A stretch of 64,000 nucleotides of DNA from Candidatus Zixiibacteriota bacterium (GTDB lineage Bacteria; Zixibacteria; MSB-5A5; GN15; FEB-12). The notes beneath the pieces were generated by a model. It saw only the letters and a list, made by a program, of their open reading frames with translations. It ran no database searches and was not told the DNA's origin. Below are positions 3,780 to 18,700 of the stretch, piece after piece; positions within the stretch are counted from its first letter, which is position 1, and every line of letters begins with the position of its first letter. The stretch is from assembly GCA_041742355.1 (NCBI GenBank), contig JBGSIV010000299.1, positions 7,912 through 71,911 of the forward strand, read 5' to 3'. The position numbers and the translations under genes were made by a program.

Positions 3780-4400
3780 CTACCCCTTTCGCTGCCCCGC
3801 CAAGTACGCCCGGATCAGGCAGTCGATCGTTTTTTCGAGGCGCCCCCAGCCGAAGTTGGAGTGCAGGTCTATGCCGAGGTACTTGTCGGCCGTGCGCGAA
3901 CACAGCACCATGTGGGTGAGACCGGCATGGACCAGGGCTATAACCGCGCCGACGTCGATCTCCGGGTAGGCGGCCGAGTCGATCGAGAGTGCCGCCAGGA
4001 GTTCCGACCCTCGCTTTTCGCGGACGGCGGCGAACTTCTCAGTCAGTTCGTTGCGCTCGAAGAGCTCCCAGCGGGCCACTTCCTGGGTCGGCTTGCGGCG
4101 CCGCAGTTCCTTCAGGCTGTTGGTGAGCACACGGATTAGGGCATCCTCCGGATCCGCCACGCGGCGCGGGTTAACGCCGGGTCCGAACAAGTCAACGGTC
4201 GAGGGCCAGAGACTGGTCTCTTCGCCGATCGCCCGCAGCACCTCCGACAGGCTTCCGAAGTAGCGGTAAATCAGGACTTTGTCAACTCCGGCTTCCCGCG
4301 CGAGAGAGTTGATGCCAAAATCCCGCCCTCCGGACTTTGTCAGGAGGCGCTCGGCCGCCTTGAGTATCCGCTCTCTGGTCTCCACCTTGTCACGCTTCAT
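3780..4400 (-). CDS. TetR/AcrR family transcriptional regulator
   Basis: N-terminal HTH: RERILKAAERLLTKSGGRDFGINSLAREAGVDKVLIYRYFGS. I prefer ATG 4400 (GAGGAGG 8 nt upstream) over the GTG 4454 start in the ORF track. Confidence 0.88.
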   Translation of the reverse strand: MKRDKVETRERILKAAERLLTKSGGRDFGINSLAREAGVDKVLIYRYFGSLSEVLRAIGEETSLWPSTVDLFGPGVNPRRVADPEDALIRVLTNSLKELRRRKPTQEVARWELFERNELTEKFAAVREKRGSELLAALSIDSAAYPEIDVGAVIALVHAGLTHMVLCSRTADKYLGIDLHSNFGWGRLEKTIDCLIRAYLAGQRKG

Positions 4401-4686
4401 GGCGACATCCTCCTCGGGACACGAAATCTCGACGTCATCTGTCCGGTCTGGCACAGGATGCCGGTCTGTAAGTGATGCGATGACCGGTCAATGGTCCGTT
4501 TATCGTGAAGCGGACGGTTGCCCCAGAGCGCGAAAAGTGGGGCACCCGTTCGTTGATTGCGATCAGACGACACTCGTCCCTGCCGATAGGACGGAAACGA
4601 GGCGGTGGCGCTTGCAGGTTCGGCAGGGAATGTGGCGCGCGGGCGGACTCAGTTTATGTCACCGCCCAGCGACAGTTAAAATCATC

Positions 4687-4702
4687 GTCACCTAACGGTG
4701 AC
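4687..4702. promoter_or_regulatory. Candidate operator palindrome 1: GTCACC-TAAC-GGTGAC
   Basis: Perfect 6+6 inverted repeat. On the minus strand it fills the 17-nt spacer between a TTGACA (4709-4704) and GATGAT, which suits an autoregulated tetR promoter. Confidence 0.45.
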
Positions 4703-4751
4703 TTGTCAAGTTCTTTCGGGGGCTCTTGGCCTGTTAGGGAGCCGAAACAAT

Positions 4752-4766
4752 TCACCGATCGGTGAC
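4752..4766. promoter_or_regulatory. Candidate operator palindrome 2: TCACC-GATC-GGTGAC
   Basis: Same TCACC-N4-GGTGA(C) core as site 1, with centres 64 bp apart. Additional half-sites occur at about 4661 (GTCACCG) and about 4843 (TTCACCGA). Confidence 0.45.
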
Positions 4767-4964
4767 ACCGGGCTCCACGTTATCGGCGCAACTCAAATAT
4801 GGATCGTAACCTACACGAATCCGGCATCGCTGTCGTTAAATTTCACCGAAAAACTCCGCTATCGCTTTCCTGAAGTCAACTGATTGTATCCTAATTCGCT
4901 TCTCGACCCCTCATTGGTATACTGCAGTCGCTTCCCCTCTCCAACCCGCTTGTCCAAATCTGTC

Positions 4965-4993
4965 TTGACATGGATAATGCGCTCGATTATATG
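4965..4993 (+). promoter_or_regulatory. Putative sigma70-type promoter for the hdr-mvh operon
   Basis: TTGACA (4965-4970), a 17-nt spacer, then TATATG (4988-4993), about 90 nt upstream of hdrC. An alternative extended -10, TGGTATACT, lies at 4915-4923. Confidence 0.35.
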
Positions 4994-5079
4994 CGTAACA
5001 GAAGGCTGACTCGTATGGGTCAAGCCGGCGTCAGGGACTACCGATCGCAGTCAAGAACCTGAATCCTCGCGGAGGAGTT

Positions 5080-5670
5080 GTGGAAGAGAAGACCTCTCCC
5101 TTTCCCAGAAAGGAAGCCGAGCTTCGCGCCGCCTTCTGGGATCAAGTAAGCAGTTTTCCCGAAGGCCACAAGGTCAGGCTCTGCCTGCAGTGTGGTACCT
5201 GCACCGGGGCGTGTCCGGTTTCGTACGCGATGGACATCACCCCGCGCCAGACAATCGCCCTCTTTCGCGCCGGCCACCTCGAGGAGATCCTCAACAGCCG
5301 CGCGATCTGGATGTGCGCGTCCTGCTACTCGTGTACGGTCCGCTGCCCCGTCGGGATCAAGGTCACCGATACCATGTATGCGCTGAAGCGTGTGGCAATG
5401 GACAAGGGGATCTACCCGCGGCAGTTCCCGGTTCACACGCTGTCCCGGATATTTGTGAACTACATCAAGAAGTACGGGCGCAACTATGAGTTGGGACTGG
5501 GTACGCGGTATCTGCTGGCCACCCGACCTTCGAAGATGTTGGGAAGCGCCGGGCTCGGCCTGTCGCTCATTCGCAGCGGCCGGATGGGGTTGGTCCCGAA
5601 GAAGCTCAAGCGGGTCAACCAGATCCGTGCGATTATCGAGAAGGCGAATCAGTTCGGGGAGGGTGTATGA
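5080..5670 (+). CDS. hdrC: Heterodisulfide reductase subunit C-like (2x[4Fe-4S])
   Basis: Two CX2CX2CX3CP motifs: CLQCGTCTGACP and CASCYSCTVRCP. GTG start preceded by GGAGGAG. The stop overlaps the hdrB ATG (ATGA). Confidence 0.85.
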   Translation: MEEKTSPFPRKEAELRAAFWDQVSSFPEGHKVRLCLQCGTCTGACPVSYAMDITPRQTIALFRAGHLEEILNSRAIWMCASCYSCTVRCPVGIKVTDTMYALKRVAMDKGIYPRQFPVHTLSRIFVNYIKKYGRNYELGLGTRYLLATRPSKMLGSAGLGLSLIRSGRMGLVPKKLKRVNQIRAIIEKANQFGEGV

Positions 5671-6557
5671 TGGACTTTGCCTACTATCCCGGCTGCAGCC
5701 TCGAGCACACGGCCAGTCCTTACGACAAGTCGATCCGGGCGGTCTTTTCCTCCCTGGGGATCGGGCTGCATGAAATCGAAGACTGGAACTGTTGCGGCGC
5801 CACGATGTACATGTCGGTCAAGAAGATCGTCGGCTACTCGATCAGTGCCCGCAACCTCGCCCTTGCCCAGAATATGGGAATGCAGATCTGCGCCCCCTGT
5901 TCGAGTTGCTACACCATTCTCCAAAAGACCAACCGGCACATCGCTTGGGATCCCCGTGAACGCGCTAAGATAAACCAGGCACTGGCGGCGGCCGACCTGT
6001 CCTACGATACCCTCGTGGAGGTGCGGCACCCGCTTGATATCCTTGTGAACGACTATGGCCTACAGGAGATCATCGGCCGGGTGACAACCCCCCTGACCGG
6101 ACTCCGTGTGGCGCCGTACTATGGCTGCCAGGTCGTGCGGCCGCACGGCTTGTTCGACGATGTGGATGACCCGGTGACCATGGACAAGCTGCTGGCCTGT
6201 GTTGACGCCGAGGTGGTCAATTATCCCTGCAAAGTGCGCTGCTGCGGCGGGATGCTCATGATCACGCAGGAGGACCTTGCGCTCGGATTGAATATGAGAC
6301 TGCTCGAAGCGGCGGTGGAGAACGGCGCGCAGGTGATTGCGACTGCCTGTCCGCTGTGCCAGATGAACCTCGAGGCTTACCAGAAGAAGATCAACGCGAT
6401 GTTCAACCGCAACTTCCACATCCCGATCGTGTACTTCAGCCACCTGCTCGGGCTTGCCCTGGGACTCGATGCGAAGACTCTGGGGCTCGATCAGCTGTAT
6501 GTCCCGCTGGATCTGTCGCGGGCGGCGGTGCTTCAACCTTCAGAGGTGCACTCATGA
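5667..6557 (+). CDS. hdrB: Heterodisulfide reductase subunit B-like (two CCG domains)
   Basis: YYPGCSL, NCCGATMYM, YYGCQVVRP, VRCCGGMLM and CPLCQMNL match the duplicated CCG-domain pattern of HdrB. Confidence 0.9.
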   Translation: MMDFAYYPGCSLEHTASPYDKSIRAVFSSLGIGLHEIEDWNCCGATMYMSVKKIVGYSISARNLALAQNMGMQICAPCSSCYTILQKTNRHIAWDPRERAKINQALAAADLSYDTLVEVRHPLDILVNDYGLQEIIGRVTTPLTGLRVAPYYGCQVVRPHGLFDDVDDPVTMDKLLACVDAEVVNYPCKVRCCGGMLMITQEDLALGLNMRLLEAAVENGAQVIATACPLCQMNLEAYQKKINAMFNRNFHIPIVYFSHLLGLALGLDAKTLGLDQLYVPLDLSRAAVLQPSEVHS

Positions 6558-7531
6558 GCAACACACCCGAACACAACGGCAACGGCATCCGTGTCGGCGT
6601 CTATGTCTGCCACTGCGGGAGTAATATCGCGAAGACGGTCGATGTCGTCGCGGCGGCTGAAGCGGCAGGCCAACTCCCCGGTGTGGTAGTCGCGCGGCAC
6701 TACCGCTTCATGTGTTCCGACCCGGGACAAGAATTGATCCAGAAGGATATCAAGGAACTGAAGCTGAACCGCATTGTGGTCGCCGCCTGCAGCCCGCTCA
6801 TGCATGAGCAGACGTTCCGCAAGGCGGTCGAAGGGGCCGGCCTGAACCGTTATTTCTTCGAGATGGCCAATATCCGCGAACAGGTCAGCTGGGTGACGAT
6901 TGACTCCCGGGCTGCCACGGAGAAAGTGCACCGGTTGATCCGCGGGTCGGTCGCGCGCGTGCATTTTCATGAGCCGCTCGAGATGCGCCGGGTGCCGATC
7001 AAGAAACGCGTGATGATCGTCGGCGGCGGTATCGCCGGAATCGAGGCTGCCCTCCAGATCGCCGACGCCGGATTCGAGGTCGTCCTGGTGGAACGGGAGG
7101 CCTCTATCGGCGGTCACATGGCGCAGTTCGACAAGACTTTTCCGACGCTGGATTGTGCCGCCTGCATTCTCACCCCGAAGATGGTCGCAGTCGGGAAGCA
7201 CCCCAATATCCGCCTGATGACCTGGGCCGAGGTTGACCAGGTGACCGGCTTTGTGGGGGATTTCAAGATCAAAGTGCGCCGGAAAGCGCGCTACGTCGAT
7301 GTGGATAAGTGCAACAGCTGCGGCTCGTGCTACGAAGCCTGTCCCAGCCAGCCGTCGCCGCGGTTCCGCCGGCTCAAGCTTGGCTCGCAGGTAATCTGCG
7401 AGGGCAGGGCGCTGCAGATTCGCCATCCCAGCGTCCTTGGCCCCGAGCACGATCTGACCATGCTGACAGGCGCGCAACCGATGCCGGAGTCGGTGTCGGT
7501 GCCGGTGCCGGTGAAAGGAGGCGCCCGGTGA
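6554..7531 (+). CDS. hdrA: HdrA-like flavoprotein, N-terminal half only (N-terminal Cys cluster domain, FAD-binding fold, first ferredoxin motif)
   Basis: The true start is ATG 6554 (ATGA overlap with hdrB), not 6356. Motifs: VGVYVCHCGSNIAKTVD, VMIVGGGIAGIEAALQIADAG, GGHMAQFDKTFPTLDCAACILTPKM, VDVDKCNSCGSCYEACP. It ends after a roughly 55-aa tail with no recognisable motif. Confidence 0.85.
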   Translation: MSNTPEHNGNGIRVGVYVCHCGSNIAKTVDVVAAAEAAGQLPGVVVARHYRFMCSDPGQELIQKDIKELKLNRIVVAACSPLMHEQTFRKAVEGAGLNRYFFEMANIREQVSWVTIDSRAATEKVHRLIRGSVARVHFHEPLEMRRVPIKKRVMIVGGGIAGIEAALQIADAGFEVVLVEREASIGGHMAQFDKTFPTLDCAACILTPKMVAVGKHPNIRLMTWAEVDQVTGFVGDFKIKVRRKARYVDVDKCNSCGSCYEACPSQPSPRFRRLKLGSQVICEGRALQIRHPSVLGPEHDLTMLTGAQPMPESVSVPVPVKGGAR

Positions 7532-8049
7532 AGACCGCAGTTGACAATCACTATGACCTGGCCGAAGCGATCGATGCGATCGTAAGCAGGTATGAGGCGA
7601 AACAAACCGCCCTCATCATGATCCTTCAGGATGTTCAGAAGCACTACCGCTACCTCCCAGTCGAAGCCCTTCGGCTGGTGGCGAAGAGAATGGATCTGCC
7701 GGTCGCGCAGATTTTCGGAGTGGCTACATTCTACCGGTCATTCAGTTTGAAGCCCAAAGGGAAGAACCACGTGTGCGTCTGCACCGGGACTGCCTGCCAC
7801 GTGCGGCAGGCCGGGGTGATTGTGGATCGCCTGGAAACCGCCCTCAAAATCAAGGCGGGCGAGACCACCGGCGACCAGCAGTTCAGTCTCGAGACGGTAA
7901 ACTGCCTGGGCGCCTGCGCGCTTGGTCCGCTGGTGACGGCCAACGAGCAGTACTACGGGAATATGACGGTACGCAAGGTCGATCGGATGCTGGCGGAACT
8001 CCAGGGAACAATAGCCGAAGCAGACCCGGATGAAGAGGAGGAGGCATGA
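7528..8049 (+). CDS. NuoE/HoxE/HydC-like thioredoxin-fold [2Fe-2S] protein
   Basis: GTG 7528 start (GAAAGGAGG at 7512-7520; GTGA overlap with the upstream stop). Motifs: LIMILQDVQKHYRYLP, VCVCTGTACHVRQAG, VNCLGACALGP. Confidence 0.85.
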   Translation: MKTAVDNHYDLAEAIDAIVSRYEAKQTALIMILQDVQKHYRYLPVEALRLVAKRMDLPVAQIFGVATFYRSFSLKPKGKNHVCVCTGTACHVRQAGVIVDRLETALKIKAGETTGDQQFSLETVNCLGACALGPLVTANEQYYGNMTVRKVDRMLAELQGTIAEADPDEEEEA

Positions 8050-10055
8050 GCGACATGCGATTCACTTCAGCCGCAGATGTCGACGAGTATCGCCGGAAGC
8101 TGATCAGGCAGAGGAATGACGACAAGACGATCATCGCGCTCTGCGCCGGCACCGGTTGCCTCGCGTGCGGCTGCGAAGCGGTGAGCGAGGCTTTCCGAGA
8201 AGCTCTTGCCGGCAGCAACCTCGAGCGAGAGGTCGAACTCAAACGCACCGGCTGTCACGGCTTCTGCGAGCGCGGTCCGCTGGCCGTGATCCAGCCCCAG
8301 GGGGTCTTCTACCAGAAGCTCAAGCCGGCCGACGCGAAGCTCATTGTCGAGCAGACAATCAAAGGGGGGCAACTGGTCAAGCGGCTGCTTTACCGCGATC
8401 CGCAAACGAAGGAGACGATCGTCCACGAGAAGGACATCCCTTTCTACAAGAAGCAGATGCGCCTAATATTCGGCAAGAACGGCTTCATGGACCCGACCGC
8501 GATCAACGACTACATCGCACTCGGTGGGTACAGTGCTGTCGTCAAAGCGCTGCGGATGAAGCCCGAAGACATCATCAAAGAAATCACTCTCTCCGGCCTT
8601 CGCGGGCGCGGCGGCGGCGGGTATCCGACGGGACGGAAATGGGCTTCATGCCGCAAGGCCAAGGGCACCCCGAAGTACATCATCTGCAACGCCGATGAAG
8701 GCGATCCCGGCGCTTTCATGGACCGTTCGCTTTTGGAGGGGAATCCTCATTCGGTGGTCGAAGGGATGATTATCGGCGCCTATGCGATCGGCTGCAGCGA
8801 GGGGTTTGTGTACGTTCGCAATGAATATCCCCTTGCGGTGAAGAATCTCGTACACGCCATCAAGACGGCGCGTGAGTGCGGCCTGCTCGGCCAGAACATT
8901 CTCGGCACCGGCTTCAATTTTGACATTGATATATCACGCGGCGGCGGCGCTTTTGTCTGCGGTGAATCGACCGCCCTGATGGCGTCTCTCGAAGGAAAGA
9001 CCGGCGAGCCTCGCGCCAAGTACATCCACACGGTTGAGGCCGGCCTCTGGGACAAGCCGAGCTGTCTGAACAATGTCGAGACCTGGGCCAATGTCCCGAT
9101 CATCATCGAGATGAACGCGACCAAGTACGCCGAAATCGGCACCTCGGGTTCGAAAGGGACCAAGGTCTTCGCCCTGACCGGGAAGGTAAACAACACCGGT
9201 CTCGTCGAGGTCCCGATGGGGATCACGTTGCGCGAGATCCTCTACGATATCGGCGGCGGCGTGCGGGGGAAGAAACGCTTCAAAGCGGTCCAGACAGGCG
9301 GGCCATCCGGCGGCACGCTGATAGTGGAAACGGGGGAGAGGGGGATCCACGACAGCATGGTCGCCCACGGTGACCTGCGGGAGGATGAGGAAGCGGTCAA
9401 CCTGCTCGATCTGCCGGTCGATTTCGATGAGCTGACCAAGGACGGCTCGATGATGGTCTCTGGCGGCATGATCGTAATGGACGAAGACTCCTGCATGGTC
9501 GATGTCGCCCGGTACTTCCTGACCTTCCTCAAGGAGGAGAGCTGCGGCAAGTGTCTTCCCTGCCGCGAAGGTATCCGGCGGATGCTGGAGATCCTCACGC
9601 GCATCAGCGACGGCGAGGGGGCAATGGAGGATCTCGCGGAGCTCGAGGAGATGAGCCAGGTGCTGATCGACACCAGCCTGTGTCAGCTCGGCGGAAGCGC
9701 GCCCAACCCGATCCTCTCGACGATCCGCTACTTCCGCCAGGAGTACAAGGCGCACATTCTCGACAAGCGATGCCCGGCCGGCGTGTGCAAGGCCCTGGTC
9801 TCGCACGCGATCACCGAGAAGTGCACCGGCTGCCGCTCCTGCGCCAAGCCCTGTCCCACCGCGGCTATCATCGGCGAATCAAAAGGCCTGCACCACATCA
9901 TCCAGGAGAAGTGCATCCAGTGCGGCGCCTGCTACCAGATCTGCAAGCACGATGCCATCGTGCGGGTGAAGCGCGGCGACGGTGATGCGGTACAAGCCCG
10001 CGCCGCCGGACTGTGGAAAGGTAAACCCAAAGCCGAACCCGTGGCGGTCGCATAG
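8046..10055 (+). CDS. NuoF/HoxF/HydB-like NAD(H)-binding FMN subunit with an N-terminal Trx-like 2Fe-2S domain and a C-terminal 2x[4Fe-4S] domain
   Basis: GLRGRGGGGYPTGRKW (FMN), ICNADEGDPGAFMDR (NADH), ESCGKCLPCREG (4Fe-4S). N-terminal CAGTGCLACGC...CHGFCERGP. C-terminal CTGCRSCAKPCP and CIQCGACYQICK. Confidence 0.9.
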   Translation: MSDMRFTSAADVDEYRRKLIRQRNDDKTIIALCAGTGCLACGCEAVSEAFREALAGSNLEREVELKRTGCHGFCERGPLAVIQPQGVFYQKLKPADAKLIVEQTIKGGQLVKRLLYRDPQTKETIVHEKDIPFYKKQMRLIFGKNGFMDPTAINDYIALGGYSAVVKALRMKPEDIIKEITLSGLRGRGGGGYPTGRKWASCRKAKGTPKYIICNADEGDPGAFMDRSLLEGNPHSVVEGMIIGAYAIGCSEGFVYVRNEYPLAVKNLVHAIKTARECGLLGQNILGTGFNFDIDISRGGGAFVCGESTALMASLEGKTGEPRAKYIHTVEAGLWDKPSCLNNVETWANVPIIIEMNATKYAEIGTSGSKGTKVFALTGKVNNTGLVEVPMGITLREILYDIGGGVRGKKRFKAVQTGGPSGGTLIVETGERGIHDSMVAHGDLREDEEAVNLLDLPVDFDELTKDGSMMVSGGMIVMDEDSCMVDVARYFLTFLKEESCGKCLPCREGIRRMLEILTRISDGEGAMEDLAELEEMSQVLIDTSLCQLGGSAPNPILSTIRYFRQEYKAHILDKRCPAGVCKALVSHAITEKCTGCRSCAKPCPTAAIIGESKGLHHIIQEKCIQCGACYQICKHDAIVRVKRGDGDAVQARAAGLWKGKPKAEPVAVA

Positions 10056-10058
10056 GAG

Positions 10059-11822
10059 ATGAATATGGCACAGGTTCATGTCAACATAGACGGCCACGAT
10101 ATCGTGATGGAGGAAGGGGCTTATGTGCTCGAGGGAGCACGATCGCTGGGTATTCGCATCCCGACCCTCTGCCACTACCCGTACATGACGCCGTATGCCG
10201 CCTGCCGCATTTGCGCGGTGGAGGCCCGCGACGGCAAGGGCTGGACCAAGATCGTCACTGCGTGCAACTACCCCGTGTGGGACGGTCTGGAAATTCACAC
10301 CGGCACCCCGCGGGTGATGAACGCCCGGCGAGTCAACCTCGAGATGCTTATGAGCCGCAGTGCGCCGGTTCCGGTGCTGCAGCAACTCGCCGATGAACTT
10401 GGTATCGAGAAACCCCGCTGGGGCACGGGCGACGATACCTGCATCCTGTGCGGGTTGTGCGTGCGCGTGTGCGACGAAGTCGTCGGTGCGCACGCGCTGG
10501 CGTTCAGCGACCGGGGGATCTTCCGCAAAGTAGCGACTCCCTTCGGCGGCCAGAGCGATGACTGCATTCTCTGCGGGGCGTGTGCCAAAGTCTGCCCGAC
10601 CGGGCATATCGCCCTTGACGATATCAACCAGCGGCAGGTGGTTCACCGGGATATCAGCCTCGCTCCCAACTCGGCGATCAGCCTGCCGTTCCGACAGGCG
10701 GTGCCCAACGTGCCGAGGATAGAACCGGAGCACTGCATTCACTTCAACACCGGCGGCTGCAAAGTCTGCTCGCAGGTGTGTCCGAAAGACTGCATTCAAT
10801 ACGATGACACCGAACAGATCGAGGAGATCGAAGTGGGGGCGGTCATTCTCGCGACCGGCTTCGACAGCTTCGATCCGAGCGTGATGAAGCAGTACGGCTA
10901 CGGCCGGTATCCGAATGTGGTGACCGCCGAGCAGTTCGAGATGATGAACAACGCGGCCGGTCCGACCGGCGGGCGAATCCTGCTGGAGAACGGGGAAGAG
11001 CCGCGGGCGATTGGCATCGTCCACTGCGTCGGCAGCCGCGATCAGAACCATCATAAGTACTGCAGCCGCGTCTGCTGCATGTATGCCTTCAAGTTCTCAC
11101 ATTTGGTCAAGGAGAAGACGAAAGCCGAGGTCTACCAGTTCTACATCGACATCCGCAGCTATGGCAAGGGCTACGAGGAATTCTATCAGCGGATTCTCGA
11201 TGAGGACGTGAACATCATCCGGGGTCGCGGCGCCGAGGTCGTTCCGGCTTCGTACCGTCGGACCGAAGAGGGGCAACTCCTCGTGCGGTGTGAGGACACG
11301 CTCATCGGGAAATTCCGCGAGGTGCCGGTCGATATGGTGATCCTCTGCACCGCGCTGGAGGCCCGGGCCGACGCCAAGGAGGTAGCCCGCAAGTTCAATA
11401 TCTCCACCGGCGCGGACGGCTGGTTTATTGAAGCTCACCCGAAACTCGGGCCGGTGTCGACGACCACCGACGGCGTTTACCTCGCCGGCGCCTGCCAGAG
11501 TCCGAAGGACATTCCGGACACCGTCTCGCAGGGGGGCGCGGCCGCCTCGCACGTGCTCAAGCTCCTCTGCCTTGGCGAGATCCTGCTCGACGCGGCCTTT
11601 GCCGAGATTCGCGAGGAGAATTGCAGCGGCTGCCGCATCTGCAACGGGTTGTGTCCGTACAACGCCATCGATTTCATCGCCGAGAAGAAGGTGAGCAAGG
11701 TGAACGCGGCGATGTGCAAAGCCTGCGGAACCTGCGTGGCGGCCTGTCCCACCGGGGCCATTGTGGGCAAACACTTCACTGACGAGCAGATTTACGCTCA
11801 GATCGAGGGGATACTCACATGA
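10059..11822 (+). CDS. hdrA: Fusion protein: HoxU/NuoG-N-terminal-like 2Fe-2S plus 2x[4Fe-4S] domain joined to the C-terminal half of HdrA
   Basis: N-terminal region: TLCHYP..AACRICAV..VTACNYPV, CILCGLCVRVCDE, CILCGACAKVCP. From about residue 205 the sequence is HdrA-like: LPFRQAVPNVP, CKVCSQVCP, AVILATGFDSFDP, QYGYGRYPNVVT, HCVGSRDQNHHKYCSRVCCMY, GVYLAGACQSPKDIPDTV, CSGCRICNGLCP, CKACGTCVAACP. ATG 10065 has better spacing from AGGAG than ATG 10059. Confidence 0.85.
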   Translation: MNMAQVHVNIDGHDIVMEEGAYVLEGARSLGIRIPTLCHYPYMTPYAACRICAVEARDGKGWTKIVTACNYPVWDGLEIHTGTPRVMNARRVNLEMLMSRSAPVPVLQQLADELGIEKPRWGTGDDTCILCGLCVRVCDEVVGAHALAFSDRGIFRKVATPFGGQSDDCILCGACAKVCPTGHIALDDINQRQVVHRDISLAPNSAISLPFRQAVPNVPRIEPEHCIHFNTGGCKVCSQVCPKDCIQYDDTEQIEEIEVGAVILATGFDSFDPSVMKQYGYGRYPNVVTAEQFEMMNNAAGPTGGRILLENGEEPRAIGIVHCVGSRDQNHHKYCSRVCCMYAFKFSHLVKEKTKAEVYQFYIDIRSYGKGYEEFYQRILDEDVNIIRGRGAEVVPASYRRTEEGQLLVRCEDTLIGKFREVPVDMVILCTALEARADAKEVARKFNISTGADGWFIEAHPKLGPVSTTTDGVYLAGACQSPKDIPDTVSQGGAAASHVLKLLCLGEILLDAAFAEIREENCSGCRICNGLCPYNAIDFIAEKKVSKVNAAMCKACGTCVAACPTGAIVGKHFTDEQIYAQIEGILT

Positions 11823-12262
11823 GCTTTGAACCGAGAATCATCGGCTTCCTCTGCAACTGGTGCAGCTACACGGGAGCCGATCTGGCCGGTACCGCCCGGA
11901 TGAAGTACCCGCCCAACATGACCAGCATCCGCGTCATGTGCAGCGGGCGTATCGACCCCGGGTTCATCCTGAGCTCGTTTCGCAAGGGGGCCGACGGCGT
12001 GCTCGTGTGCGGCTGCCATCCGGGCGACTGCCACTATGTCGAGGGAAACTACAAGTGCCTGCGCCGGATGCTCCTGACCCGACAGCTGATCAAGGACTTC
12101 GGTATCGATCCCGTCCGGCTGCGCCTTGAATGGGTGTCGGCCTCGGAGGGAGCCCGCTTCCAGGAAGTCATTACCGAATTCACCGAGCAGATCCGGTCGC
12201 TCGGTCCACTCAAACTCGGCGGCCTCGTTCCCGAAGTGGAACGGACCGCAGTGCACACCTGA
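11819..12262 (+). CDS. mvhD: Methyl-viologen-reducing hydrogenase delta subunit (MvhD/FlpD family)
   Basis: IIGFLCNWCSYTGADLAG, IRVMCSGRIDP and GVLVCGCHPGDCHY form the canonical MvhD pattern. ATGA overlap with the upstream gene. Confidence 0.9.
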   Translation: MSFEPRIIGFLCNWCSYTGADLAGTARMKYPPNMTSIRVMCSGRIDPGFILSSFRKGADGVLVCGCHPGDCHYVEGNYKCLRRMLLTRQLIKDFGIDPVRLRLEWVSASEGARFQEVITEFTEQIRSLGPLKLGGLVPEVERTAVHT

Positions 12263-12273
12263 GCGAGGCATAC

Positions 12274-13245
12274 ATGGCAAAACCGAAACTGGCCATCTAC
12301 TGGGCGGCCTCCTGCGGCGGCTGTGATATCGCCATCCTCGATATCGAGGAGAAGATCCTCGGGGTGGTTGATTTCTTCGACCTGGTTTTCTGGCCGTGCG
12401 CAATGGATATCAAGTACGACGATGTCCGGGCTATGCCGGACAAGTCAATTACCCTGACGCTTTTCAACGGCGCTATCCGCAACTCGGAGAACTATGAGAT
12501 GGCCCACCTGCTGCGGCAGAAGTCGGTGGTGCTCTGTGCGTTCGGAAGCTGCGCTGCCGACGGATGCATACCGGGACTGGCCAATTTCTGCCACAAGCAG
12601 GACATTCTCGAGTATGTCTACCACAAATCCCCATCCCTGGACAATCCGAACGGGACCATTCCGCAAGTCGAATGCCGTGTCCCCGAAGGCCGGCTGACTA
12701 TTCCGGAGATGTGGGACAGCGTCTTCTCGCTCGGCCAAACCGTCCCGGTCGATGTGATCATTCCGGGCTGCCCGCCGCAGTCGGACCAGATTGCAGCGGT
12801 GGTAGCGACGGTGATCGACATCCTGAAAACCGGCAAGCCGCTGCCTCCTGCCGGAACCGTTCTCGGTGCGACCGACAAGAGCTGCTGCGACGAGTGCCCC
12901 CGCGAACGCAACGTCAAGAAGATCAAGAAATTCGTCCGTCCATTCGAGGTGGTCACTGATCCCGATATCTGTCTGATGGAGCAGGGGATCATCTGCAACG
13001 GCCCTGCGACCCGCTCCGGGTGCGGCGCGAAGTGCGTCAAAGCCGGCGTGCCCTGCCGTGGCTGCTACGGCCTGCCCATTAACGTCCGCGATCAGGGGGC
13101 CAAGATGGTTTCCGCTATCGCCAGTGTCATCGATTCCAACGATCCGGAGGAGATCGAACGGATTATCGCCACAATCCCCGATCCGGTCGGCACATTCTAC
13201 CGATTCAGCCTGCCCGGCTCGATGTTGCGGAGGGTGCAGTCATGA
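12274..13245 (+). CDS. mvhG: Group 3 [NiFe]-hydrogenase small subunit (MvhG-like)
   Basis: The true start is ATG 12274 (MAKPKLAIYWAASCGGCDIAILD), not 12130. Motifs: AFGSCAADGCIPG, IIPGCPP, and the C-terminal Cys clusters CCDECP..CNGPATRSGCGAKCVKAGVPCRGC. Confidence 0.85.
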   Translation: MAKPKLAIYWAASCGGCDIAILDIEEKILGVVDFFDLVFWPCAMDIKYDDVRAMPDKSITLTLFNGAIRNSENYEMAHLLRQKSVVLCAFGSCAADGCIPGLANFCHKQDILEYVYHKSPSLDNPNGTIPQVECRVPEGRLTIPEMWDSVFSLGQTVPVDVIIPGCPPQSDQIAAVVATVIDILKTGKPLPPAGTVLGATDKSCCDECPRERNVKKIKKFVRPFEVVTDPDICLMEQGIICNGPATRSGCGAKCVKAGVPCRGCYGLPINVRDQGAKMVSAIASVIDSNDPEEIERIIATIPDPVGTFYRFSLPGSMLRRVQS

Positions 13246-14723
13246 AGGAAATCGTCATCGATCCGATCACCCGCCTGGAGGGACACGGCAAGATCCACCT
13301 GTTCGTCAAGGACGACGGCAACCTGGCCAACGCCTATTTCCAGGTGCCCGAGCTCCGGGGTTTCGAACGATTCTGCGTGGGGCGGCCGGTCGAGGAAATG
13401 TGCCGCATCACGACGCGCATTTGTGGCGTTTGCCCCGATGCCCATCACATGGCGGCTGCGAAGGCGGCCGACGCGGTCTACGGCGTAACCATCCCATCGG
13501 CAGCGCGGAAGCTCCGCGAACTCATGTACAACGGCTTCTACGCCGGCGACCACACGACCCACTTCTACGCCCTCGGCGGACCAGATTTCGTGTGCGGTCC
13601 CGACGCACCCAAGGCCGAGCGGAATATCCTTGGAGTCATTGCCAAGGTCGGGCTCGATGCCGGCAAGGCGGTGATCGCCCAACGCGCACGAGGCCAGCGG
13701 ATAATCGAAATCATCGGCGGCAAGAAAGTCCACCCGGTGACCTCCCTGCCCGGCGGGTTGTCGAAGCGGGTCACGAAAGAAGAGCAGCAGGAAGTTATCG
13801 AGATCGGCCGCCAGATGGTCGAGTTCGGCAAGTTCACGATCAAGGTTCTCAATGACATCGTCCTCGCCAACAAGGCCTACGTCGATCTCATCCTGTCCGA
13901 CATGTTTACCCACAAGACCTACAACATGGGCCTGGTCGACGCCAACAACAAGGTGACATTCTACGACGGCATGGTCCGGGTCACTGGACCCGACGGCAAG
14001 GAGCGGCACAAGTACGAGCCGAGGGACTATCTCCAGTATGTGGCCGAACATGTCGAGCCATACTCTTACCTGAAGTACCCGTACCTCAAACAGGTTGGAT
14101 GGAAGGGGATGGTCGACGGAATCGAATCGGGTGTCTACAAGGCGAGCCCGTTGAGTCGGCTGAACGTATCTGACGGCATGGCGACGCCGCTGGCGCAGGC
14201 CGAATACGAGCGCTTCTACGAAACGCTGACCGGCGATCGCTCAGGCCGTACGCCGGTCCACTCAACGCTCGCCACCCACTGGGCCCGCGTGGTCGAACTA
14301 GTGTTTGCCTGCGAGGCCGTTCTCCAGCAGGCTCAGGACGATGAAATTACGTCCGACAAGGTGCTTAATCCGCCGACGGGGATTGTCGGCGAGGGGGTCG
14401 GCATTGTCGAAGCCCCGCGCGGCACCCTCACGCATCACTACAAGACCGACGGGAACGGTATCATCACAGAGGCCAACCTGATTGTCGGCACGACCAACAA
14501 CAACGCCGCCATTTCGATGTCGATCAAGAAAGCGGCGGAAGGTCTTATCCGAGCCGGTCAGCCGATAACCGACGGCGTGCTCAACAGAATCGAAATGGCG
14601 TTCCGGGCGTACGACCCGTGTTTCGGTTGTGCCACTCACAGCCTGCCGGGCGAAATGCCTTTGGAACTGATCATACATGAGGCGGAGAGCGGCGAGGTGA
14701 TCCAAACCGTCAGGAGGTTCTGA
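13242..14723 (+). CDS. mvhA: Group 3 [NiFe]-hydrogenase large subunit (MvhA-like)
   Basis: N-terminal RLEGHGKI and RICGVCPDAHH (RxCGxCxxxH). C-terminal DPCFGCATH (DPCxxCxxH), followed by a roughly 27-aa extension that would be removed by the endopeptidase. Confidence 0.9.
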   Translation: MKEIVIDPITRLEGHGKIHLFVKDDGNLANAYFQVPELRGFERFCVGRPVEEMCRITTRICGVCPDAHHMAAAKAADAVYGVTIPSAARKLRELMYNGFYAGDHTTHFYALGGPDFVCGPDAPKAERNILGVIAKVGLDAGKAVIAQRARGQRIIEIIGGKKVHPVTSLPGGLSKRVTKEEQQEVIEIGRQMVEFGKFTIKVLNDIVLANKAYVDLILSDMFTHKTYNMGLVDANNKVTFYDGMVRVTGPDGKERHKYEPRDYLQYVAEHVEPYSYLKYPYLKQVGWKGMVDGIESGVYKASPLSRLNVSDGMATPLAQAEYERFYETLTGDRSGRTPVHSTLATHWARVVELVFACEAVLQQAQDDEITSDKVLNPPTGIVGEGVGIVEAPRGTLTHHYKTDGNGIITEANLIVGTTNNNAAISMSIKKAAEGLIRAGQPITDGVLNRIEMAFRAYDPCFGCATHSLPGEMPLELIIHEAESGEVIQTVRRF

Positions 14724-15229
14724 TGAGTTCGACGCTGGTGCTGTGCCTTGGCAACGACGTCCTGTCGGATGATGCATTCGGCTTTCACCTGGCCCGGCGA
14801 CTGCAGGAACAGGAGGAACTGGAGGGCAAAGCGGATGTGCAGTTTGCCCCGTTGGCAGGCTTCAATCTGCTGCCGCTGCTCCAGAACCACGAACGGCTCC
14901 TGATTGTCGATACCATCGTCACCGGTCGGGCGCTGCCGGGGACCATCCACTTCTTTCCGATGGGCGAAGAGACTCCCTCGCGTCTGTTGACCTCCAGCCA
15001 CCAGATCAGCCTGCCCCACGCGCTTGCCCTCGGACGGGCGCTCGGCATGGCCATGCCGGAGAGCATCGATGTTCTGGCGGTGGAAGCGCAGGATGTGTGC
15101 ACGCTCAGTGAGGAGATGACTCCGCCGGTGGAGGAGGCACTCGAACCGGCCCTCAGCCGGGTCGCCGAATGGATCGCCACGTCACTATCGGAGGAATACC
15201 ATGGAGGATTCGAACCGCAGGTCAACTAA
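14723..15229 (+). CDS. Hydrogenase maturation endopeptidase (HycI/HoxW/FrhD family)
   Basis: LVLCLGNDVLSDDAFG (GNxxxxDDxxG), LLIVDTI and SSHQISL. The ATG shares 1 nt with the mvhA stop. Confidence 0.85.
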   Translation: MSSTLVLCLGNDVLSDDAFGFHLARRLQEQEELEGKADVQFAPLAGFNLLPLLQNHERLLIVDTIVTGRALPGTIHFFPMGEETPSRLLTSSHQISLPHALALGRALGMAMPESIDVLAVEAQDVCTLSEEMTPPVEEALEPALSRVAEWIATSLSEEYHGGFEPQVN

Positions 15230-15506
15230 GCCGCCCGACTGCACCCCGCAGCGATGTCCCGAATGCCAGGGACGAGGATGGACCGACAACCGCTGCCTGA
15301 CGCCTGACCATGCGCACCGGTGCTCGTACTGCGACGGCAAGGGGTTTAATGCCCTGGAAAACACCTGTTTCGCGTGCCACGGTACGGGGCAGATAGAAGT
15401 GCGGCAAATCGATAAAGCGCCTTGCCCGCTCTGCTCCGGAGCCGGCGTCTACCCGGTGCCGGAATCTATGACGCTGGCCGAATTCGCTTTTCGTCCGCGT
15501 TCCTGA
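15201..15506 (+). CDS. Stand-alone DnaJ-type cysteine-rich zinc-finger protein (4x CxxCxGxG)
   Basis: CPECQGRG, CSYCDGKG, CFACHGTG, CPLCSGAG. GGAGG lies 6 nt upstream of the ATG. It overlaps the protease gene by 29 nt. Confidence 0.6.
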   Translation: MEDSNRRSTKPPDCTPQRCPECQGRGWTDNRCLTPDHAHRCSYCDGKGFNALENTCFACHGTGQIEVRQIDKAPCPLCSGAGVYPVPESMTLAEFAFRPRS

Positions 15507-15702
15507 AGCTGGATCAGCGATAGGAAACCGGCCGGTTCCCCCGGGAAACGGGGAGCCCGGGGTTGCGCTGTAGTCTGGTGCAGTCGCACGCTACCGCCGC
15601 CGTGAGTTCATACTGCCGGGAGATCTCTGCGGGGAGGATCCGGCGATGGCGAGTCACATGACCATCCGCCGGTCCATTATCAAACGCACGGCCGTCGTCC
15701 GT

Positions 15703-18700
15703 TCAGCGTTGTAGCTTGAAGATGAAATCGAGCCCGCTCGTCTTGCTGTCCCCTTGAAGAAGCTGCAGAAAGAGATGTTTGTTCAACTCGTACTCCAGCG
15801 TGACTATGTCTGGAGTCGCCTCCTGTCCCGGCGCGCTGCCGAGCGAACGCTGGTAGCTCATGAAGAGATCGTTGGTCAGGTACTTGCCGATCGTCATCGT
15901 AGCTGAGGCCAGGCTGCCCTGTGAATTGATATCGACGACATCGAGACCAAGCTTGCTGCCGAGGGTCTGGGACAGCTGGTTGGAGAGCATATTGGCGGCA
16001 GCCCCTTTCGCCAAATCAGCCTGCGCCGCGCCGGCATCGGACTGCTGTCCCGACGTCAGCTCGTCCATGCTGCGCCCGTACATGACATAGGCGATGGCGT
16101 CTTTCTCCTCGATCGCGGCATCATCAAGCGTGAACTGGAGCACCGGCGTGAACGCCTTGCCGGAGACCTCGAGCTTGAGGGTTCGCTTCTCACGTTCCGC
16201 CGTGCGAAACACGTACTGCGCCTGCATCGAGACCTCCGGATTGTACTCCGCGCCCCCCTGGAACAGCAGATTCCCCTGCACGATCGTGAAGACCTTCCCG
16301 TAGAGATTGTACTGGCCGCGTACAATCCGGAGCGGTCCGAACAGCTCGAAATCGGGGCCGTTCTTGACCAGATCGAGATCTCCGTCGCCGATTTCAAGAT
16401 TCATATCCGGGCTGCGCAGCCAGGTATTGCGTGGTATCAGGACTTTGAAACTGCCGCGCAGGTTCTCGAACCAGTCGACCTCAGCGGTGTCAATCTCGGA
16501 CTTGTCGACCACGAGGGCATTTCCCGTGGAGTCGGCCAAAGAGTCGGCTGGCAGCGTGGCCCTGACCAGCATCGGCATCGACTGGTCGGCCATGGCCTGG
16601 GCGGCGGCGGCTTTCTCCATGAGGGCCGGGAGAAAGAAGCTCGATCGAAGAATTGTGATATTGCCCGAGTACCTCGGCTCCGCGCTGTTGCCGGTCAGAC
16701 GCGCATCGCCGGAGATGGATACCTGATAGTCTTTGTGCTTAATCACCTCAAACGAGTTCGCGAGGAAATCAAATTCGGTCGTCTTGATCACGCCGGTGAG
16801 GAGGTCCCGCTCGAACTGCAACGATCCCGAGCCGGTCAATATTCCCTTGTCCCTCACAGCCTGCAGGGTGTCCAGGGTGATGACGGCGTCGTGTACCGAG
16901 AGACCGACCAGCATGTCTGAGTACTCGATACCGTGCGCCGAAATTGAAACCGAGCCGTCGCGCAGGCCGAACTGGCCGCCCACTTTGGGAGCATCAATGG
17001 TTCCGGCGATATTGATATCGGCGGTGATCAACCCCGCGACATTGCTGAGCGGTTGGCCGGAAGCCTGAACGACCGAAAGGGGGAGGCCGGAGGTCCTGAC
17101 ATCGACTTCAAATGGCCGGTCCCGGTGAACTGCGTCCCCGGTGTTGTCGAGCGCAAGGTTGACCGGAAGGAGGCCGGTAATGGCCAGGCTGTCCGCTTGG
17201 TGCGGCACCAGCGACAGGCTCCAGGCGAGGTTCTCGGCCTCGTAGTCGAAACCGGCGTGAATGGCGCGATACGAGAACTGGTTGACCAGGCCGCTGTCGA
17301 TCGCCATCCGTCCGGAGAGAATCGGCGACGACGCCGATCCGCCGAGGTGCATACTGGCGGTCAACAGTCCGGCTACGCTGTCCGGGATATCGAAGGCCGC
17401 GACCAACGGCCTGAGGTCGAGACGATCGATAGCCAATGAGAGATCCTCGGTTCCGGTCATCGAAAACAGCCCCGCCACTGAAATGGTTTGCTGCTCTCCG
17501 GCAGCGGCGACAGGTGAACTCAGGATCAGATTCTCGATACGGTAGTCCTCGCCGATCACGGCAAGACGCGTTTCCGGACTGCCTCCGCGCCACTGCTGCG
17601 TCCCGAAGTCAAAGGCGATAGCCGGAACCACCGCGCTGATCGTGCTGTCGATAGCCACCATGCTCTCGAAGTGAGCGCTGATTCCCGGTCGGTAGAATCC
17701 ATCAAGGACAATGGCCGCCGAGGCTCCGGTGAAATCCGAAGTGGCGATAACCGAATCCAGCACGAGGCTACCGGCTATCAGGCGATATGCCGATATCCGA
17801 GCGTTGCCGCTCAGGCTGTCCCCCAGCGACAGCGCGGTCAGTTGTGCCTCCACCGTTTCGACGCCGGACGTGTTATACCACAGGTTATTCAGGGCCAGGT
17901 CACCACCAATCGACAGCGAATCAAGAGCACCATTGACAGTTCCGTCGAGCGTGCCGGCTCCCGAGAGCGTATCGATACCGGTGAGCATTTCTCGCAGGGG
18001 GGAAAGGGACTTCAAACGCACCGCATACATCAGGGCGTGGGTGCCGTCGACCTCTCCCTGGCCGACCGCGCTCAGGCTCCCCACCGCCGATGCGGTATGC
18101 AGAGTATCCAATCGATAAGAGTCGGCAGTGAAATCCAAACGCGCGAAAGCTGTGTCAACGTTCACGCCGGAAAACGTCGACGGCGAGAGATGGAGTTGCG
18201 CGTTCCCGCTCAGACGCGTCGTATCAAAGCCGCTGCCGTTCACCAGCGCGGTCAAATTCAGGTCGGAGATCATACTGTCCGTCTGAAGCAGGGGGGCCAG
18301 ATTGAGGTGCGAGAATGTCAATCCGATTTCGTAGCTCTGGGAATCGAGTATGTCGGTTACGCTGAAGACAGAATTCAGGCCGCCAAAGGCACCGGAGGCG
18401 TCAAGTGAACCAACGAGATCCCCCCCCGCGTAGCGGGCGGTGCCGGTCATCTGGCCGAGCGACCGGCCGAGAGCACCAACATCTCCAAGGGCAATATCCA
18501 TTGCGACATCTGCGTCCTCGGCAGTAAATCCACTCCCGGCCAGCGTGATCGTACCGTTCGCGCGGTAGTCGGCAGCGGTGTCTCCCAGCCAGTGGGCCAG
18601 GTCGAAGTTCGTTAGGCCGATATCGAGGTAGTACCGCACGAGATCATGCGTAGCGACGTTCATTGCTTTGCTGACATTGGCGACACTGAGGCCGAGGTCT

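Follow-up and report, generated by a model that had tools for sequence, protein, structure and literature searches.

A predicted Mvh-Hdr-Bfu composite encoded by a bacterial hdrCBA-mvhDGA operon with a bfu cassette nested inside hdrA

Gene content and layout of the operon

A stretch of 64,000 nucleotides (nt) from a Candidatus Zixiibacteriota bacterium (GenBank assembly GCA_041742355.1, contig JBGSIV010000299.1, positions 7,912 to 71,911 of the forward strand), in the following called the window, carries at 5080-15506 on the plus strand one unbroken head-to-tail string of 11 open reading frames (ORFs), as seen in both the ORF listing and the raw sequence. The gene order is hdrC, hdrB, hdrA N-part, nuoE-like, nuoF-like, a fusion of a BfuA-like domain with the hdrA C-part, mvhD, mvhG, mvhA, a protease gene and a zinc-finger gene. 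Thereby, heterodisulfide reductase (Hdr) genes, genes of a [NiFe]-hydrogenase of the Mvh type and a three-gene cassette for an NAD(H) module are joined in one operon, and the cassette splits hdrA between the two Cys motifs of its inserted ferredoxin domain. A preliminary description made from the letters of this DNA had counted twelve genes; its separate HoxU/NuoG-N-terminal iron-sulfur (FeS) domain belongs to ORF 10059-11822. The gene identities given there were each borne out by profile searches with Pfam and NCBIfam, and the features are as follows.

5080-5670, plus strand: hdrC-like gene, 196 amino acids (aa); Fer4_8; HdrC model TIGR03290 at 82 bits, under its cutoff
5667-6557, plus strand: hdrB-like gene, 296 aa; CCG domain PF02754 in two stretches; HdrB model TIGR03288 at 189 bits and an SdhE-like model at 197 bits, both under their cutoffs
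6554-7531, plus strand: hdrA N-part, 325 aa; HdrA2 model positions 1-261
7528-8049, plus strand: nuoE/hydC (BfuC)-like gene with GTG start, 173 aa; PF01257 at 2e-50; HoxE and NuoE models under their equivalog cutoffs
8046-10055, plus strand: nuoF/hydB (BfuB)-like gene, 669 aa; Pfam, NCBIfam and PDB matches to bifurcating enzymes
10059-10604, plus strand: BfuA/HoxU/NuoG-N-terminal-like FeS domain, aa 1 to about 182 of the fusion protein; HoxU, NuoG and group A6 FeFe-hydrogenase N-terminal models
10560-11822, plus strand: hdrA C-part within the same ORF (10059-11822); HdrA2 model positions 240-640 on aa 167-585
11819-12262, plus strand: mvhD, [2Fe-2S] adaptor, 147 aa; FlpD domain PF02662 at 1e-54; VhuD model
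12274-13245, plus strand: mvhG-like gene, [NiFe]-hydrogenase small subunit, 323 aa; PF01058; VhuG as top model at 207 bits, under its cutoff
13242-14723, plus strand: mvhA-like gene, [NiFe]-hydrogenase large subunit, 493 aa; VhuA as top model at 398 bits; MvhA 5odc_F at 1e-120
14723-15229, plus strand: hydrogenase maturation endopeptidase, 168 aa; HycI domain PF01750; TIGR00072 at 106 bits, over its cutoff
15201-15506, plus strand: DnaJ-type zinc-finger protein, 101 aa; Anti-TRAP / DnaJ_CXXCXGXG match; four CXXCXGXG repeats
4950-4978, plus strand: weak sigma-70-like promoter candidate, TTGTCC-17-GATAAT, 9/12 matches

The six 4-nt overlaps reported before were all found in the raw sequence, five of them ATGA (5667-5670, 6554-6557, 8046-8049, 11819-11822, 13242-13245) and one GTGA (7528-7531). 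These overlaps speak for translational coupling of the genes. Gaps of 3-11 nt had been claimed for the other junctions, which holds for the nuoF-like gene and the fusion ORF (3 nt, or 9 nt with start codon ATG 10065) and for mvhD and mvhG (11 nt), whereas mvhA and the protease gene overlap by 1 nt (TGATG, 14721-14725) and the protease and zinc-finger ORFs by 29 nt (15201-15229). The fusion ORF probably starts at ATG 10065, since AGGAG is located at 10055-10059 and homologues of 585 aa fit this start.

Upstream, the operon is bordered by a divergent TetR-family gene (3783-4454, minus strand) and a 625-nt intergenic region (4455-5079); downstream, by a convergent TamB gene (15706-19602, minus strand) together with an Omp85 gene. 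A promoter scan of the 625-nt region 5′ of hdrC gave 3 sites compared to 3.1 from shuffled sequences, which is chance level, and no Rfam family was found in 4000-16000. Since also the promoter and terminator scans of the plus strand yielded nothing beyond chance, it is the gene spacing that suggests a single transcript for the operon. The TetR-family protein is a possible local regulator of the hydrogenase operon. Farther along the window, a very large ORF of 2419 aa (30365-37624, minus strand) and several more ORFs above 900 aa were noted.

In HdrC, two CX2CX2CX3CP motifs (Cys 35/38/41/45 and 79/82/85/89) correspond to 2x[4Fe-4S], and HdrB has CCG motifs at C42-C43 and C192-C193; in HdrB, CCG domains form the noncubane cluster and disulfide reduction site. 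The genes mvhD-mvhG-mvhA follow directly 3′ of the hdrA C-part. Both NiFe-ligand pairs are present in the large subunit, RICGVC (C61/C64) and DPCFGCATH (C460/C463), the latter followed by a C-terminal extension. Its VhuA match of 398 bits compares with an equivalog cutoff of 800. Among PDB sequences, it scored 407 bits with MvhA of M. wolfeii (5odc_F), 368 bits with HydL of A. mobile, 318 bits with group 3d Hox, and about 91-106 bits with groups 3b/3a. Because MvhA outscores all these other large subunits, the protein is group 3c-like, as judged from PDB bit scores; thus, the choice between groups that the preliminary description had left to be made falls on the MvhA side.

The interrupted HdrA and the Bfu-type NAD(H) module

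Both pieces of HdrA could be aligned with HdrA of M. wolfeii (5odc_A), aa 13-267 of the N-piece with HdrA 5-260 (E 7e-97) and aa 168-585 of the fusion protein with HdrA 245-649 (E 3e-108). According to the two alignments, the break is located directly after Cys motif 1 (CX2CX2CX3CP) of the inserted ferredoxin domain. The N-piece comprises the N-terminal FeS domain, the first half of the thioredoxin-reductase-like flavin adenine dinucleotide (FAD) domain, Cys motif 1 (C253/256/259/263) and a 62-aa tail, and the C-part comprises the linker of the inserted ferredoxin domain, motif 2 (CX7CX2CX3CP; C226/234/237/241 of the fusion protein), the second half of the FAD domain and the C-terminal 2x[4Fe-4S] domain. 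HdrA is therefore not the canonical single polypeptide; all four domains and their ligands are kept, but spread over 6554-7531 and 10059-11822, with two genes and a fused foreign FeS domain in between. Its hallmarks are present, namely the GxGxxG motif for FAD, the CxxC pair C201/C204, the HA4-type cysteines C323/335/339/340 and the flavin-N5 lysine K345, which aligns with K409 of 5ODC, the lysine touching the flavin N5 in bifurcating HdrA. The ligand cysteines of the motifs, of the N-terminal domain, of the CxxC pair by the FAD and of the HA4 type are invariant (100%) across 27 N-pieces and 42 fusion proteins.

Four [4Fe-4S] Cys motifs surround the split, one in the N-piece and three in the fusion protein, and therefore, whichever pairing applies, one two-cluster ferredoxin domain would have to be built from two polypeptides. 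We infer that the two HdrA pieces reassemble and that the orphan motif of the N-piece pairs in trans with one of the fusion protein's motifs to form this ferredoxin domain, which would place the cluster chain of BfuA next to HA5/HA6, the low-potential exit of HdrA. The inserted ferredoxin domain was described as this exit, with electrons passing from FAD over the domain to ferredoxin (Chadwick et al., PMC9012536), and methanogen supercomplexes have polyferredoxins, MvhB and FmdF, hard-wired to the path FAD-HA3-HA5-HA6 (PMC13580544).

The NAD(H) module had been labeled HoxEFU/HydBC-type. Only the second half of this label stands: the module is of the bifurcating HydBC/Bfu type and not of the Hox type, as judged from sequence signatures and PDB matches. 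The BfuC-like product (PF01257) is a thioredoxin-like [2Fe-2S] protein. For the BfuB-like protein, the best PDB matches were WorB (9mqx_B, 3e-224), NiFe-HydB of A. mobile (7t2r_B, 3e-221) and HydB of T. kivui (8a6t_B, 1e-214), and NfnB and Stn homologues were also among its relatives, so that the best solved relatives are all electron-bifurcating. Its Pfam domains are an N-terminal thioredoxin-like [2Fe-2S] domain, the site for flavin mononucleotide (FMN) and NAD(H), an SLBB domain, a [4Fe-4S] domain and a C-terminal 2x[4Fe-4S] ferredoxin domain; NuoF of complex I lacks both the N-terminal [2Fe-2S] and the C-terminal 2x[4Fe-4S] domain. Residues specific for Bfu enzymes are, in A. mobile numbering, A202/M204 within GDPGAFMD next to FMN, and C438/H525/C531/C536 of the B2-or-Zn site (PMC9304861). 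Aligned to 7t2r_B, the BfuB-like protein has E218-GDPGAFMD-D226 and C483/H570/C576/C581. Its ligand cysteines are conserved to 94-100% in 35 sequences, C483, C576 and C581 to 100%. At the position of A. mobile C476, the BfuB-like protein has Ser; WorB and T. kivui HydB have Thr there. About 26 aa (IVETGERGIHDSMVAHGDLREDEEAV) are inserted at aa 426-451 (window 9321-9398), between the SLBB domain and the [4Fe-4S] helix bundle; this insertion occurs in about 86% of family members and in no solved BfuB/NuoF.

The BfuA-like protein exists solely as a domain fused to the HdrA C-part. HoxU/NuoG N-terminal models cover aa 1 to about 100-190 of the fusion protein, and the closest PDB match is WorA (9mqx_A) with aa 7-201 (E 3e-34). 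Its ligands are C38/49/52/69 for a [2Fe-2S] cluster and two [4Fe-4S] motifs (C128-138, C169-179). As there is no Cys between C69 and C128, the His-ligated A3 cluster is absent, and the domain is therefore a Type 2 BfuA, for which cluster A4 is the site of electron entry (PMC9304861, PMC12318220).

Taken over the whole operon, ligands are intact for FAD, FMN, about 22 FeS clusters and the NiFe site. A loss of key cofactor ligands, named beforehand as a point that would speak against a functional unit, was not seen, with 94-100% conservation in 27-42 orthologues. The earlier proposal that the modules form a single unit is supported by the interruption of hdrA and by the covalent fusion of an FeS domain of the NAD module to the HdrA C-part. 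Divergent relatives have the same break point and, in addition, an HdrA N-part that continues into NuoE. All operon products very probably form one complex, as read from these gene structures, and the natural fusions give a clear, testable prediction of touching cofactor chains.

Distribution and variants of the nested module

From 193 related stretches found in a scan of one genome per species, the best 80 were retained, and 43 of these 80 carry the full fusion. The nine core genes are all present in the order of the window in 19 of the 25 loci with enough flanking sequence. Fusion carriers include Mb-scale contigs and complete chromosomes, among them a 4.3-Mb contig with the same eleven-gene layout. 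Gene-order recurrence, for which a database search had been proposed, thus extends to at least 43 species-level metagenome-assembled genomes (MAGs). The hosts are Zixibacteria (including RBG_16_53_22), KSB1, Calditrichaeota, Ca. Deferrimicrobium, Coatesbacteria, Anaerolineae, Chloroflexia, Eisenbacteria and Thermoanaerobaculaceae, and the fusion protein of the window is nearest to Zixibacteria loci (80-83% identity). The best 120 matches in the fusion protein family are all 583-604 aa long with 66-95% identity and their names, where given, are limited to 'heterodisulfide reductase subunit A' and '4Fe-4S dicluster domain-containing protein'. In 10 of the 25 sufficiently flanked loci, a homologue of the zinc-finger protein was found at the same position; the protein may help in assembly of the complex or act as its chaperone. 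In one locus (L028), hypF and hypD follow the zinc-finger gene.

An unsplit hdrC-hdrB-hdrA-mvhD-mvhG-mvhA order occurs in delta-proteobacterial, Chloroflexi and Bacillota MAGs and is likely the ancestral state. In a neighbor-joining tree of the HdrA core, calculated without support values, the family of the window forms one tight clade among bacterial Mvh-linked HdrA, and the Chloroflexia and ETF-linked fused forms are placed in other clades. Contrary to this placement, the identical break point in HdrA argues for common descent of the fused forms.

Several loci differ in the content of the cassette. In L032 (2259-5178; L031 is alike), four or five extra genes are located between the HdrA N-piece and nuoE, encoding a CBS-domain histidine-kinase-like ATPase, a PHP-domain protein, a small HATPase_c protein and two ORFs without Pfam match. 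Because nuoE and nuoF of L031 and L032 are only 38-55% identical to those of the window, an exchange of the cassette is suggested there. In three Chloroflexia MAGs (L038, 4817-7987; also L039 and L040), the NuoF-like protein has 1056 aa, and its C-terminal 2x[4Fe-4S] ferredoxin domain is replaced by a GltD/NfnB-like domain (Fer4_20 and Pyr_redox_2), a sign that NADP(H) may serve as a further partner in this lineage; no hdrC or hdrB was located within 7 kb upstream.

A search of 1.8 billion cluster representatives revealed about 12 more fusion proteins with 36-43% identity. The gene strings around three of these more distant forms are:

L083, 4858-10941: acyl-CoA dehydrogenase, etfB, etfA, HdrA-N::NuoE fusion, NuoF-like, BfuA::HdrA-C fusion, HdrD-like
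L085, 1361-9928: etfA, hdrC, hdrB, HdrA-N::NuoE fusion, NuoF-like, BfuA::HdrA-C::MvhD fusion, CCG protein
L086, 584-7866: FAD-oxidase-Fer4-CCG fusion, short HdrA-N::NuoE fusion, NuoF-like, BfuA::HdrA-C fusion

In the alignment of all three, the HdrA break point is the same as in the window and the N-piece continues directly into NuoE. Therefore, the nested HdrA-Bfu unit is a portable module that is covalently linked at one or both ends.

Predicted electron flow and comparison with known systems

Flavin-based electron bifurcation (FBEB) lets anaerobes live near the thermodynamic limit. For the hdrCBA-mvhDGA operon with the bfuC-bfuB-bfuA cassette nested inside hdrA, we lean towards a reading in which one soluble Mvh-Hdr-Bfu composite bifurcates electrons from H2 at the FAD of HdrA, to a disulfide and to the Bfu core, which reduces NAD+ and ferredoxin. 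MvhAG would oxidize H2, and at the FAD the high-potential electron would pass via HdrC and HdrB to a disulfide, while the low-potential electron would take the way over HA5/HA6 and BfuA (A4-A2-A1) into the BfuBC core instead of reducing free ferredoxin. The FMN-FeS site of BfuBC would then share out the electrons, to NAD+ at FMN and to ferredoxin at BfuB's C-terminal domain. The net reaction would be an H2-dependent reduction of NAD+ and ferredoxin, boosted by the disulfide, with two coupling modules in series. At the H2 pressures of sediments, E′(H2) is about -300 mV, which is not negative enough for NAD+ plus ferredoxin to be reduced in the plain HydABC manner. As reasoned from standard potentials, the proposed scheme would be feasible at low sediment H2 because the coupling to the disulfide would lower the potential of the electrons passed to Bfu.

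It is also conceivable, though we hold this with less confidence than its opposite, that nested HdrA-Bfu is a portable and so far unrecognized serial-bifurcation module with two mechanistically different bifurcating sites, which in the window would make up a new class of [NiFe]-hydrogenase complex. If so, disulfide reduction would drive H2 electrons to NAD+ and ferredoxin at environmental H2 levels, or provide ferredoxin of very low potential, and the same module with ETF/acyl-CoA dehydrogenase or FAD-oxidase partners would serve other metabolisms.

Several observations weigh against H2-driven reduction of NAD+ and ferredoxin by such a composite. All 43 loci are MAGs, and the direction of electrons through the Bfu arm is not readable from the sequence. 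In three loci (L028, 2622-5317; L034; L059) the split and the fusion are kept with no nuoE/nuoF between the pieces, and the BfuBC core may there be dispensable, lost or encoded elsewhere. The contexts examined of the more distant fusions have no hydrogenase, and one also has no MvhD; in the relatives linked to ETF and acyl-CoA dehydrogenase, the Bfu arm may well be the donor. Synthesis of coenzyme M and coenzyme B (CoM/CoB) is not known for these bacteria (Zixibacteria RBG-1, PMC3903129). Finally, class II benzoyl-CoA reductase (BCRII) uses its HydBC-like module as input, with confurcation of NADH and reduced ferredoxin (10.64898/2026.04.10.717634).

This last point leads to the most serious alternative, according to which the composite is the same with the Bfu arm as input, so that NADH and reduced ferredoxin are confurcated and the electrons run via HdrA either to the hydrogenase for fermentative H2 evolution or, joined by those of H2, to the HdrB substrate. 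The confurcating role was shown experimentally for the homologous BamGHI of BCRII (10.64898/2026.04.10.717634) and also proposed elsewhere (PMC9304861), and Bfu enzymes are reversible (PMC9304861). Moreover, the hydrogenase-less relatives adjoin genes for ETF, acyl-CoA dehydrogenase or FAD-oxidase, where NADH is a likely donor, and Zixibacteria RBG-1 is without Rnf and without other H2-evolving hydrogenases for re-oxidation of ferredoxin (Castelle et al., PMC3903129). However, the cassette is grafted onto the inserted ferredoxin domain, which is the exit, and not onto the C-terminal ferredoxin domain/MvhD input site used by BamGHI; in the window, this input site is taken by MvhDGA. Also, the characterized Mvh-type group 3c enzymes all oxidize H2, and H2 production backwards via the bifurcating FAD would need simultaneous thiol oxidation at HdrB, which makes no obvious physiological sense. 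We therefore regard an input role of the Bfu arm as rather unlikely in this operon.

Less probable by far is that the NuoEF-like pair acts as a plain NAD+ reductase (diaphorase) as in HoxEFU, so that the operon would encode an NAD+-reducing hydrogenase carrying Hdr subunits. Among named NCBIfam models, HoxE and HoxU indeed score highest with the NuoE-like protein and with the fusion's N-terminal domain, all under their cutoffs. Yet the extra FeS domains of BfuB, GDPGAFMD and the Cys/His site separate bifurcating from non-bifurcating homologues (PMC9304861; PMC8805022), the best structural relatives of the BfuB-like protein are all bifurcating enzymes, and the large subunit is closer to MvhA than to Hox. 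Moreover, bifurcation at HdrA would make no thermodynamic sense if NAD+ were the only low-potential acceptor. Membership in the Hox type (3d) itself was rejected on the large subunit (318 bits with Hox, 407 bits with MvhA), the bifurcating-type BfuB and the presence of hdrCBA plus mvhD.

Operons often join functionally related but physically separate enzymes, and Hdr, a NuoEF-type NADH:ferredoxin oxidoreductase and Mvh could be three independent enzymes that are only co-transcribed. This is very improbable, as the FAD domain is divided between two ORFs flanking the cassette and folding of HdrA needs both pieces, the BfuA-like domain and the HdrA C-part are one polypeptide, NuoE is fused to the HdrA N-part in relatives, and the gene order is fixed over 43 loci. 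An assembly chimera, a decaying pseudogene or an intein-like element as the cause of the split hdrA was rejected as practically negligible on recurrence and ligand conservation, with the same architecture in 43 independent assemblies (including the 4.3-Mb contig), more than 120 protein clusters with lengths of 583-604 aa and 66-95% identity, and intact ORFs.

The operon is a novel, uncharacterized and widespread variant of known module kinds, and not a categorically new system. The preliminary description named no characterized enzyme of this composition, and the literature check turned up none with this arrangement; no named or characterized enzyme with this gene order was found in the literature covered, which did not include the 2021 review on HdrA modules (Appel et al.). 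A Zixibacteria operon was annotated earlier as ordinary MvhADG/HdrABC (PMC3903129), and for Caldithrix abyssi a group 3c cluster was reported whose upstream hdr genes have no known function, the intervening genes appearing in neither text nor supplement (PMC5317091). The survey of the Bfu family, from which metagenomic data were excluded, lists no Hdr-Mvh-Bfu type (Schut et al. 2022, PMC9304861). The operon is common in abundant uncultured phyla of sediments and aquifers (Zixibacteria, KSB1, Calditrichota, Chloroflexota). Since it is annotated there as ordinary Mvh/Hdr, genome-based models of the H2/NADH/ferredoxin balance are probably wrong on this point.

MvhAGD-HdrABC and the Bfu core are the building blocks, and the composite departs from the canonical architecture of each because HdrA is not one polypeptide, BfuA is only a domain, and the contact between hydrogenase and BfuA is unlike that in NiFe-HydABCSL. 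All six subunit types of methanogen MvhAGD-HdrABC (group 3c, PDB 5ODC) are found in the operon together with their ligands, and this complex is the best PDB match for MvhA, the HdrA N-part and the HdrA C-part (E 1e-120, 7e-97 and 3e-108). In the operon, however, HdrA is split in two with the BfuCBA cassette nested in the inserted ferredoxin domain, and a CoM/CoB context is missing. Because of the split and the nested cassette, the low-potential exit is probably hard-wired to the NAD/ferredoxin module and not to free ferredoxin.

NiFe-HydABCSL of Acetomicrobium mobile (7T2R) shares the [NiFe]-hydrogenase and the BfuBC core (BfuB 3e-221, large subunit 5e-109). Its hydrogenase feeds BfuA directly via A3, and it has no Hdr or MvhD; in the operon, by contrast, BfuA is without A3, and HdrA (FAD) and HdrBC stand between hydrogenase and Bfu. 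The tungsten aldehyde oxidoreductase-Bfu enzyme WorABCSL (9MQX) is the best match for BfuB (3e-224) and for the BfuA domain (3e-34), and likewise has no A3 and electron entry at A4 (PMC12318220). Its WOR module docks via the C-terminal helix of WorA, whereas here the C-terminus of BfuA runs on into HdrA. HoxEFUYH (group 3d) has NuoE-, NuoF- and NuoG-N-terminal-like subunits and a [NiFe]-hydrogenase as well, but neither Hdr nor MvhD, and its HoxF is without bifurcation signatures and extra FeS domains.

In textbook systems, as it had been put before, these modules are separate. As a general statement this is outdated by BCRII and the HdrA proteins of ANME-1. BCRII, Bam[(BC)2DEFGHI]2, combines HdrA-type and HydBC/Bfu-type modules, an MvhD-like adaptor and a Type-2 BfuA (10.64898/2026.04.10.717634; PMC9304861). 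BamI and BamF connect its input module BamGHI to the C-terminal ferredoxin domain of BamE, and the low-potential arm of BCRII leads to a tungsten enzyme. In the operon, MvhDGA occupies the input site and Bfu the low-potential arm, the genes are nested rather than adjacent, and there is no tungsten subunit; no AOR-family gene of the BamB type was found in or beside the operon with Pfam and NCBIfam. The authors of the BCRII study state that no earlier report had described two FBEB modules within one complex (bioRxiv 10.64898/2026.04.10.717634). The complex of this 2026 preprint is the only studied one that links two different bifurcating modules, and the operon family would be a second and differently wired case, with HydBC/Bfu on the low-potential output of HdrA and the hydrogenase on its input.

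In HdrA9/10/11 of ANME-1, the same inserted ferredoxin domain is interrupted by a pyridine-nucleotide-binding flavin module (PMC9012536). There, it is a single in-frame NfnB domain of 500 aa in an archaeal protein that has no link to a hydrogenase and is uncharacterized as well; according to Chadwick et al. (PMC9012536), the insertion would give two bifurcation sites. The Chloroflexia loci L038-L040 likewise carry a GltD/NfnB-like domain, fused to the NuoF-like protein. The natural gene fusions also single out the inserted ferredoxin domain of HdrA as a place where pyridine-nucleotide modules repeatedly dock and insert.

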